Of a stretch of DNA of 64,000 bases, positions 3,144 to 46,590 are shown one piece after another. The notes under the pieces are model-generated. The model had not been told where the DNA came from and made no database searches. It worked only from the letters and a program-made list of their open reading frames with translations. Position 1 is the first letter of the stretch. Each line of letters starts with the position of its first letter. The translations under genes were made by a program, and so were the position numbers. Source of the stretch: Bacteroidaceae bacterium. GTDB taxonomy: Bacteria; Bacteroidota; Bacteroidia; Bacteroidales; Bacteroidaceae. The DNA lies in assembly GCA_045616905.1 (NCBI GenBank), contig JAZLHP010000060.1:23166-87165 (forward strand). The letters are read 5' to 3'.

Positions 3144-3215
3144 AGTCAGAAGTAAATAATCATAATTAATTCTGACCAATTACTTAGAAAGATATTAAAC
3201 ACTCCCAATATAATA

Positions 3216-31636: not shown

Positions 31637-32767
31637 CTACAACGACTTCTTGAAGCAGCGTCTTCTCTTGTGCTGTCTTCTTTCAAAGTATATCCATTGC
31701 GATTGCACCTTGTCGTTTACTTCCAATTCAGGGTTTGTCTCTACGTATTCGTATCCTTCTTGAATGTAGATAGGCAGAAGGTCGTAGAAAAGGATTGAAT
31801 TGATTCCTTTGCCTTGGTATTCAGGAAGGATGCCAACGAGCAGAAGGTCAAGTGTCTTTGGTTTCTTCCACTTGAGTGTTTTAATAAGATGATACCATCC
31901 GAATGGGAATAGTTTTCCTTTTGCTTTCTGCAATGCTCTCGACATTGAAGGCATTGATATGCCCACTCCTACGAGTCGTCCATCAGCTTCCGTAATGAGG
32001 CTTACAAGCTTGAGGTCAACGAATGACAAATATGTGTCAACGTATTTGTCTATCTGTTTCTGACTCAATTCGCTATAACCGAATAATGGCTTGAACGCTT
32101 CGTTGATAACGTGGAAAATATCTTGTCCGTATTCTTTTGCAATCTTCTTTGCTGACGTGTATTTCTTAATGTGCAAGTCGTATTTCTTCATTACGATTTC
32201 TGCAATGCGTGAAAGACGCTCAGGCACACCAGTTTCCCTTGGCACGGTCATCAGCATTTCAATCCAGTCGGCATCCTTAGCAAAACCGAGTTTTTCCATG
32301 TGAACAGGATAGTAAGGATGGTTGTAGATGGTTGCCATGGTGGACATTTCATCGAATCCTTCTATAAGCATGCCTTCAGGATCCATGTCCGTGAAACCGA
32401 GAGGTCCTTGTATCTCAGTCATTCCACGCTGTCTGCCCCACTCTTCTACTGCCTCAATGAGTGCTTTGCTTACTTCTTCGTCATCAATGAAATCAATCCA
32501 TCCGAAGCGAACGCACTTGAGGTTCCATGTTTTGTTTGCCTTTTTGTTGATGATGGCTGCAACTCGACCTACTATCTTTCCTCTCTTGTATGCAAGGAAG
32601 TAATCTGCCTCGCAGAATTCCATTGCAGGGTTCTTGTCTGTAAGTGTTTCCAGCATGTCTTCGTATAGATCTGGAACAGAGTATGGATTGTCTTTATATA
32701 ATTCGTAATTGAATCTTATGAATTGTTTGAGTTCTTTTTTTGTTTCAACTTTTTTAATAGTAACCAT
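31637..32767 (-). CDS. GNAT-fold N-acyltransferase family protein
   Basis: MVTIKKVETKKELKQFIRFNYELYKDNPYSVPDLYED... plus C-terminal ...LLVGILPEYQGKGINS (acetyl-CoA binding Q/R-x-x-G-x-G/A type). Start taken at the second Met (32767). Confidence 0.6.
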   Translation of the reverse strand: MVTIKKVETKKELKQFIRFNYELYKDNPYSVPDLYEDMLETLTDKNPAMEFCEADYFLAYKRGKIVGRVAAIINKKANKTWNLKCVRFGWIDFIDDEEVSKALIEAVEEWGRQRGMTEIQGPLGFTDMDPEGMLIEGFDEMSTMATIYNHPYYPVHMEKLGFAKDADWIEMLMTVPRETGVPERLSRIAEIVMKKYDLHIKKYTSAKKIAKEYGQDIFHVINEAFKPLFGYSELSQKQIDKYVDTYLSFVDLKLVSLITEADGRLVGVGISMPSMSRALQKAKGKLFPFGWYHLIKTLKWKKPKTLDLLLVGILPEYQGKGINSILFYDLLPIYIQEGYEYVETNPELEVNDKVQSQWIYFERRQHKRRRCFKKSL

Positions 32768-32770
32768 AAT

Positions 32771-32850
32771 TAAGTAGGAAATCAAAATTAATTTATTATG
32801 TATAAGCAGGTCGTTTTTTTTTTGTAAAACTAATTGTGATTACCTACTTA
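32771..32850. repeat. Three-part inverted-repeat element, copy A (arms TAAGTAGGAAATCA / TGATTACCTACTTA, internal direct half-copy TAAGCAGGT, T10 run)
   Basis: Arms are complementary at 13 of 14 positions. About 85 percent identical by eye to the element at 46486-46590. The gene-proximal arm carries TAATTTTG (-7 box, minus strand, 32783-32790). Confidence 0.7.
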
Positions 32851-33012
32851 TAAATAAGCAACAATAATGTTTGTTTTAAGTGTATAATCCAGTATTTTTC
32901 GGCAAATATACGACTTTTACATAACTTTTTCCACATTTATTTTGTTCAATTACTTAATATTAACTAATTTTACACCCAAATATCATAAAAAATCTAAAAA
33001 TTTTTAATAATT

Positions 33013-34200
33013 ATGCGTATTATCAAGTCATTTTTAGCAGCTGCAATGGTTGCTATTTGCGGATTAAATGCATCTGCGCAGACAGAGTCATGCTGTTCCA
33101 GCGGAATAAGCTGTGAAGAGGCACAGGAGCTTGGTTACAAGCCTTATCCTTATGGATTCATTCAGATTCAAGGTGGTGTAGGAACAACTCTTACAGACGT
33201 GAGCTGTTGGAAACTGTTAGAACCAACTTACAGCATCGCTGGAGGTTATCAGTTCTCTCCAATCGTGGGTGCTCGTCTTCACGTTAACGGTTATAAGTCA
33301 AAGGGTGGTTTTGACTCTTTCAATAGCCAGGTAATAGATAACACTCCTTTGAACAACACAGTACTCAAATACAAGTACAACTACATCAACACAAATGTTG
33401 ATTTGATGTTCAATGTGTTAAACATCTTTTCAAAGAAGGTTCACCGTCCATTCGACTTGTATGTAATCGGTGGTGTAGGTCTTAACTACGCATGGGACAA
33501 TGATGAATTTGAGGCATTGGTAGGTCAGTGCAAGCCAACAAGCGACATCAGCAACGCATGGGGCGACAAGCAGACACCACGTCACAATCTTCTTGGTCAC
33601 AACCTCCGTCTCGGTCTTCTTGCTGACATCAACATCTCAAAGCACTGGAGTGTAGGTGCAGAGGTTGATTTCAACTCACTTGACGACCGTTTCAACTCAA
33701 AGTACAAGGATGCTGACGACTGGATGATCACAGGTCAGTTGTCTCTCACTTATAAGTTTGGTTTCAAGAAGGTTAGCAAGCCAGCACCAACACCAGCACC
33801 AGTAATCATTGAGAAGACTCCAGAACCAGAGCCTGTTAAGGAAATCGTTCCTGTAAAGGAAGAGCCTAAGCCAGTGGTTGTAGAGGAACCAATCAAGGAG
33901 GTTATCTACTATGCTATCCGCGAGTCAGATCCTGAAACTCAGAGCGTTCTTAACCGTGTCGTTGCATGGTGCAAGAAGTATCCTAACAAGACTATCAGCG
34001 TTGATGGTTATGCTGACAAGGGCACTGGTACTCCTAAGCTCAATGTCGGTTATGCACAAGCTCGTGCAAACAAGGTTGCTGATGCACTCAAGAAGATGGG
34101 TGTTCCTGAAAGCCAGATGACAGTTAAGTCTTATGGTGACACAGTTCAGCCATTCCCAGAGAATGACAAGAACCGTTGCGTCATCATCGAGGGCAAATAA
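33013..34200 (+). CDS. OmpA-family outer membrane protein (beta-barrel + Pro-rich linker + OmpA_C peptidoglycan-binding domain)
   Basis: Signal peptide. Linker KPAPTPAPVIIEKTPEPEPVKEIVPVKEEPKP. C-terminal ...ISVDGYADKGTGTPKLNVGYAQARANKVADALKKMGV...NRCVII. Confidence 0.85.
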   Translation: MRIIKSFLAAAMVAICGLNASAQTESCCSSGISCEEAQELGYKPYPYGFIQIQGGVGTTLTDVSCWKLLEPTYSIAGGYQFSPIVGARLHVNGYKSKGGFDSFNSQVIDNTPLNNTVLKYKYNYINTNVDLMFNVLNIFSKKVHRPFDLYVIGGVGLNYAWDNDEFEALVGQCKPTSDISNAWGDKQTPRHNLLGHNLRLGLLADINISKHWSVGAEVDFNSLDDRFNSKYKDADDWMITGQLSLTYKFGFKKVSKPAPTPAPVIIEKTPEPEPVKEIVPVKEEPKPVVVEEPIKEVIYYAIRESDPETQSVLNRVVAWCKKYPNKTISVDGYADKGTGTPKLNVGYAQARANKVADALKKMGVPESQMTVKSYGDTVQPFPENDKNRCVIIEGK

Positions 34201-41161: not shown

Positions 41162-41289
41162 AAAGGAGGGAGTGTTGTAATTGGCAAGACTTGAGAATGG
41201 AGTTTTTGTAACGGAACATTTGTATTTCGTTTTCAGCTGACTTGCTCTTTCGTTGTATAATTAATTTGTTCACTTACTTAGAATAAGAT

Positions 41290-46485: not shown

Positions 46486-46590
46486 TAAGTAGGTAATCAA
46501 AATTAGTATAATTATAAGTAGGTCGTTTTTGTAATATCTGCTTCCAAATAGAGCACATCTATTATAAAACTAATTATGGTCACCTACTTA
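46486..46590. repeat. Three-part inverted-repeat element, copy B (arms TAAGTAGGTAATCA / TGGTCACCTACTTA, internal TAAGTAGGT)
   Basis: Arms are complementary at 12 of 14 positions. Same order of parts as copy A, with about 25 extra nt in the spacer. Carries TAATTTTG (-7 box, minus strand, 46498-46505). Confidence 0.7.

Follow-up and report, generated by a model that had tools for sequence, protein, structure and literature searches.

RUP and its partner IS630-Spn1 provide a close parallel to the repeat family described here, as both families number about 100 intergenic, non-coding copies with terminal repeats that match an IS630 element, both occupy a TA target and both fold into a long hairpin (PMC2229807, PMC3049150). 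RUP differs in sequence and host, however, and the family described here shows nested size classes, many solo arms and an interior that is a module common to MITEs with other ends. ISY100/ISTcSa, of the IS630/Tc1-mariner type, resembles the partner element identified in the present analysis in its HTH and DDE domains, its length of approximately 1.1 kb and its TA duplication (PMC2170065), although our partner is split into two ORFs. The Correia/NEMIS elements of Neisseria, judged by their published description, share the TA ends, the length classes produced by internal deletion and the location within transcripts (PMC2229807); promoters and RNA-structure effects have been proposed for them (PMC2229807), of which promoter activity is unsupported for copy A, the element analysed here. 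Within the Bacteroidales, BrickBuilt and other MITEs of Porphyromonas gingivalis likewise combine ends that match an insertion sequence with captured interior DNA, whereas IS5-type 12-bp ends and a minisatellite interior set the BrickBuilt type apart (PMC4596501). REP/REPIN sequences also occur as inverted doublets and singlets, and a short hairpin preceded by GGAG in the core of our full-length element recalls them, yet no internal hairpin is present in the arms described here, which are those of a DDE element. The family differs from the known kinds of MITE by a core that is common to unrelated ends, and a literature search, thin on subscription papers, returned no description of either the MITE family or the structured core.

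Copy A and its relatives in the window

The window analysed is a stretch of 64,000 nucleotides from a Bacteroidaceae genome, in which copy A lies between a GNAT-family acetyltransferase gene and a divergent ompA gene. Copy A is very probably a decayed, non-autonomous MITE of the IS630/Tc1-mariner type, and its features are given below together with the neighbouring genes and the other members of the family in the window.

3149-3186, no strand assigned: degenerate 38-bp arms-only derivative (two arms, no interior)
11732-11751, minus strand: solo arm
31637-32767, minus strand: GNAT-family acetyltransferase gene, 376 aa
32771-32850, minus strand: copy A, read as an 80-bp internally deleted IS630-type MITE, the length including both terminal TA
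32771-32790, minus strand: right terminal inverted repeat of copy A, 3 nt from the GNAT ATG, with a TAnnTTTG match in poor context
32803-32811, plus strand: internal half-copy of the arm, a linker beside the right end in the subfamily of copy A and the source of an alternative hairpin
32814-32826, plus strand: T10 run with the approximate junction of a deletion that removed about 105 nt of the full-length element (the structured core)
32831-32850, plus strand: left terminal inverted repeat of copy A
32903-32910, minus strand: likely native -7 box of the GNAT gene, outside the element and conserved upstream of orthologues, with a predicted start site
32965-32972, plus strand: promoter-like box facing ompA, outside the element and conserved where orthologues have this gene pair
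33013-34200, plus strand: OmpA-family outer membrane protein gene
41261-41280, plus strand: degenerate solo arm before a pfkB kinase gene
46486-46590, minus strand: copy B, a 105-bp deletion derivative of the same MITE as copy A

In copy A the left-to-right orientation of the family corresponds to the minus strand. The original prediction had noted that 32771-32784 and 32837-32850 match at 13 of 14 positions, which is correct, and the pairing extends to 18 of 20 (32771-32790 with 32831-32850), giving a 20-bp inverted repeat; the minus-strand boxes at 32783-32790 and 32903-32910 and the ATG at 32767 were also located as described. The half-copy of the arm and the T10 run are both present, although the half-copy, previously placed at 32813-32821, was found at 32803-32811, and the T10 run occupies 32814-32823. 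Recurrence of the 20-mer was confirmed at 46486-46505 (no change) and 11732-11751 (one change); the site at 41261-41280 has 5 mismatches rather than 1-4, though it passes the family profile. The window contains five matches to the 20-mer with up to 3 mismatches, as compared to 0.00 expected. The 38-bp member at 3149-3186, which lies between divergent genes, had been missed in the earlier list.

The repeat family and its IS630 partner

Dispersal beyond the window was borne out by 66 sites with up to 3 mismatches to the 20-mer in the 2.3-Mb genome, and an arm profile returned 82 sites at a score of at least 20 versus none in three local shuffles. In total 108 arms were recognized, 56 of which form 28 outward-ending inverted pairs while 52 are solo, and 105 of the 108 fall outside ORFs (3 inside) in a genome that is 87% coding. 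The arms are conserved across the 28 pairs; the paired elements span 33-451 bp, are non-coding with homologous interiors, and fall into length classes of 33-47, 80-109, 179-204, 261-263 and 451 bp. When aligned with the ~187-bp element, copy A covers ~26 bases at the start and ~55 at the end, and it thus represents the two ends of that element with the middle deleted, copy B retaining slightly more. Junctions in the 33-47 and 80-109 bp classes lie at short direct repeats, as is expected from slippage across the hairpin, and shrinking via microhomology has been described for mariner MITEs (PMC3814204). Solo arms at four further positions of this genome (G000 C11:54467, C13:41291, C36:33401 and C7:41007) lie squeezed in between the start codon and an intact TAnnTTTG promoter box, and some of them supply the A of the ATG; such arms may have been domesticated as leaders.

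The partner was sought as a DDE_3 domain in genomes where the arm closes paired elements. This yielded a 1.1-kb element (L306) in which two arms enclose one HTH and one DDE ORF; its right arm is nearly identical to the arm of the present genome, and about 70 of 80 related loci from gut metagenomes, 1093-1123 bp in length, end in the arm. None of 55 distinct junction pairs has a duplication outside the terminal TA, and the long ORFs interrupted in L383, L388 and L416 keep their frame only when one TA is counted, indicating that TA is the duplication of the partner element. Its transposase carries Pfam HTH_32 and DDE_3 domains and passes the NCBIfam IS630 model NF033545 (133.6 against a cut-off of 100), close homologues are annotated 'IS630 family transposase' at NCBI, and 39 of 55 copies have an intact D-D-E frame. 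A T run is present where the two ORFs overlap, and a frameshift at this run would join them. The variant L355, along with eight loci of the same insertion, begins with the exact 20-mer, and both ends of copy A match the ends of this variant at 23 of 27 positions. Sequence comparison of this kind identifies the arms of copy A as the terminal inverted repeats of an IS630-family element of approximately 1.1 kb. An A at +3 beyond the TA, a weak preference, was found at 61% of IS ends, 49% of other MITE arms and 40% of the arms of this genome. Homology between the partner and the interior of the MITE ends after ~27-45 nt, so that the MITE did not arise by simple deletion from that IS.

The transposase was not found in the present assembly, which is 72% complete, and the only carrier genomes in which it was detected are Prevotella sp. 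CAG:891 and G062, the latter with a fragment; the CAG:891 copy has a 2-bp insertion (L306:1470-1480) that breaks the second ORF. The IS630 copies L350, L351, L355 and L357 have a single right flank in common but left flanks of three kinds, of which one bears a MITE-type left arm; this is a sign of rearrangement or of end exchange between IS and MITE. A viral contig carries a 1904-bp transposase-less element with the same arms (L333:7870-9773), located beside an integrase and containing a PIN-like gene and an HTH-ImmA/IrrE peptidase gene; this is a passenger-gene form of the MITE.

The full-length ~187-bp element has matches in 14 of 59 genomes of the genus, the family is abundant in 4 of 25, and 16 genomes from other families showed none of it. 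Paired elements that end in the same arm also occur in Prevotella falsenii, Prevotella sp. CAG:891, Alloprevotella, cyanobacteria and a Methylococcales bin, while a plasmid collection contained only short arm matches, in cyanobacterial plasmids, and no transposase lay beside the arm in the three of these that were inspected. Cyanobacterial elements of 105-132 bp with the same arms (L191, L213, L218, L226, L234 and L252) enclose REP-like GC-rich hairpins, and a complete cyanobacterial IS630 (L320) has the same class of ends.

Two carrier genomes, G019 and G024, allowed orthologous sites to be compared. Their MITE copies are 88-93% identical and their genes 73-88%, which suggests that the MITE spread after or across the species split, and several orthologous spacers are filled in one genome and empty in the other, presence or absence at orthologous sites being seen between species only. 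No paired element was found upstream of any of 29 GNAT orthologues, among them those of G019 and G024, both of which have the same GNAT/ompA pair. Copy B, which sits between a TAnnTTTG box and the GH53-GH43 start, was similarly not found upstream of three GH53-GH43 orthologues. The G019 and G024 spacers are too diverged to have yielded a base-exact empty site for any MITE copy. The MITE ends read TA..TA, with stop-codon restoration in 10 of 16 as compared to a background of 43%, and the terminal TA dinucleotides of copy A would represent the target duplication. A full-length copy at G019 C11:24249 lies at a synteny break (inversion) relative to G024 C15.

The structured core absent from copy A

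The predicted fold of full-length copies is a long rod (z -10.7), and in 26 of 26 of them the left-to-right strand folds better. The core is a covarying rod of ~130 nt with tandem GA motifs, in which the GA/GA internal loops flanking the apical stem are conserved. Across 28 non-redundant copies 40 of 50 interior pairs have changed on both sides, and rod pairing was observed in 82.6% of cells as compared to 66.6% in shuffles and 43-51% in slid controls, a score that is favoured by the derivation of the structure from these same 28 copies. An unbiased check of the stem pairing is provided by a pattern search with the stem entered as N, which yielded stems that were nearly all complementary, from 33 of 251 family genomes and 13 of 35 genera, with zero for the control. 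Searches of Rfam gave no match for full-length copies. Template-switch correction of quasi-palindromes can yield paired changes without selection; the retained GA/GA mismatches, however, argue against it as the whole story.

The core is not confined to IS630-type ends, as its motif was found 64-72 nt inside elements of ~180-206 bp whose ends are of at least five unrelated kinds. A second MITE family of ~184 bp, with IS1380-type ends (CCC..GGG) and the same structured core, is represented in this genome by 26 pairs, including one at C61:9449-9632 (L446), and half have an exact 5-bp duplication; L511 is a further locus of the family, and in G711 the family's arm closes off a transposase gene of the IS1380 family. 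One IS1380-type copy is nested inside an IS630-type MITE. In L449-L478 the distance of the core into the element is constant, and the ends belong to at least three other kinds, namely GGTGGGTTCTA-like, GTGATGG/GTAATGG-like and GAAGCTG-like with a TTA duplication, and no autonomous partner for the other end classes was found in viral contigs. A GC-rich insert of ~75 bp occurs at the same spot beside the apical hairpin in both MITE families (C51:3395-3657, C68:12644-12904 and C62:21448-21698 of this genome), which suggests exchange of interiors. The structured module comprises a rod of ~130 nt that combines tandem GA pairs with a fixed apical motif and is enclosed by IS630, IS1380 and at least three more kinds of ends. 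We tentatively propose, as a possibility short of an even chance, that the parent MITE carries a strand-specific core which is selected in its own right and passed among unrelated IS ends in Prevotella-like bacteria, where it may aid mobilisation or tolerance within transcripts.

Promoters, leader folding and the origin of copy A

The sigma-70 consensus of Bacteroidota consists of a -7 box, TAnnTTTG, and a -33 TTTG (PMC9330008). When scored against a promoter profile derived from the boxes upstream of genes in this genome, the box at 32903-32910, which is conserved ~25-60 nt before the start in GNAT orthologues, ranked at the 62nd percentile of promoter context and that at 32965-32972 at the 91st. 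The TAnnTTTG box in the proximal arm of copy A reached the 4th percentile and is without a -33 TTTG, and the distal arm does not match the box. As both conserved boxes lie outside the element, copy A probably lengthens the GNAT 5′ UTR and would be unneeded as the GNAT promoter. Of the three options in the original prediction, the MITE-like dispersed element is retained, now tied to an IS630 transposase, but delivery of a promoter is unsupported at this locus, given the better and conserved box upstream. The MITE may still have been kept here and at similar sites for its right arm acting as an outward promoter, or for an orientation that favours downstream expression, and MITE-borne promoters are known from BrickBuilt (PMC4596501) and Correia (PMC2229807). 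A start codon within 60 nt is faced by 22 of 34 arms with an intact TAnnTTTG as compared to 21 of 74 others (p=6e-4), and among oriented pairs the right end points toward the start in a ratio of 8:1 in this genome (p=0.04) and 20:10 in others (p=0.10). We consider such retention unlikely, because the arm boxes fall in the lowest 2-4% of the promoter-context profile without a -33 TTTG, the native upstream box is conserved and scores at 62%, and the orientation bias could stem from strand-specific folding among copies that are non-independent; the more frequent facing of nearby start codons by right than by left arms nonetheless leaves room for a regulatory side effect. That the spacer holds a conserved back-to-back host promoter module would fit the position of copy A between divergent genes and its single TAnnTTTG match, but the promoter-like pair is located outside the element and is kept in all orthologous spacers, from which the element is absent, the distal arm has no box, and most copies are not between divergent genes; the chance that this second option is right is negligible unless other promoters serve the orthologues.

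The mutually exclusive hairpins described in the original prediction are feasible in silico at ~80% and ~20%, and the third option, a leader RNA switch, builds on them: the distal arm would pair either with the middle half-copy, freeing the start codon, or with the proximal arm, holding the start region. The two folds of the predicted leader are close in energy (-20.8 and -19.7 kcal/mol, arm-arm forming ~80 and arm-middle ~20 per cent). Against this, the whole leader folds weakly (z -1.78) and has no Rfam match, the element is absent from the 29 GNAT orthologues, no ligand or leader peptide candidate was apparent, and the half-copy is a family-wide feature that occurs in members beside unrelated genes and varies in other subfamilies. 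A switch is therefore very improbable, and the alternative hairpin of copy A, though feasible in the folding model, is incidental. Site-specific inversion of a phase-variable promoter segment by a recombinase acting on the arms might be suspected from the size (100-260 bp), the inverted arms and the occurrence of both orientations relative to genes, and a related tyrosine integrase has the element upstream in G024 and G019. It is extremely unlikely, however, as the arms match IS630 ends, no resolvase was found, the 38-bp arms-only forms leave nothing to invert, and close homologues of the integrase are missing from most carriers, including this genome, and present in non-carriers. This integrase was also rejected as the mobiliser, for want of co-occurrence with carrier genomes; in G024 C2 (L017:300-2260) an arm-type tyrosine integrase gene is embedded among clustered MITE pieces, and a direct repeat flanks it on either side. 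Other candidates were likewise discarded: RAYT/REPIN, as no Y1 transposase was found in this genome, G019 or G024 (assemblies 72-95% complete), a serine invertase, none being found, and an integron-like cassette array, since the genes between arms are housekeeping genes in all orientations.

A decayed IS630-type MITE is by far the most probable reading of copy A, for which the following history may be envisaged. An IS630 transposase acting in trans would have excised a full-length copy and inserted it at a TA that lies a few bases upstream of the GNAT start codon, with duplication of the TA; the ISY100 transposase alone binds its ends, excises the element and inserts it at TA with duplication (PMC2170065). 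Slippage between short repeats across the long hairpin would then have deleted the core. By analogy, the single-end insertions common for ISY100 in vitro (PMC2170065) are a possible source of solo arms. In the GNAT 5′ UTR, copy A would fold weakly near the start codon and may dampen or stabilise the mRNA as a side effect.

As a decayed MITE in a leader, copy A is in itself unremarkable. The cognate IS630 transposase, with exactly matching ends, has now been identified, and trans-mobilisation is consequently directly testable in gut Bacteroidales. If the core is functional, some bacterial MITEs would consist of interchangeable ends and a selected folded module rather than being mere relics of IS deletion, which would bear on how MITEs arise and persist.
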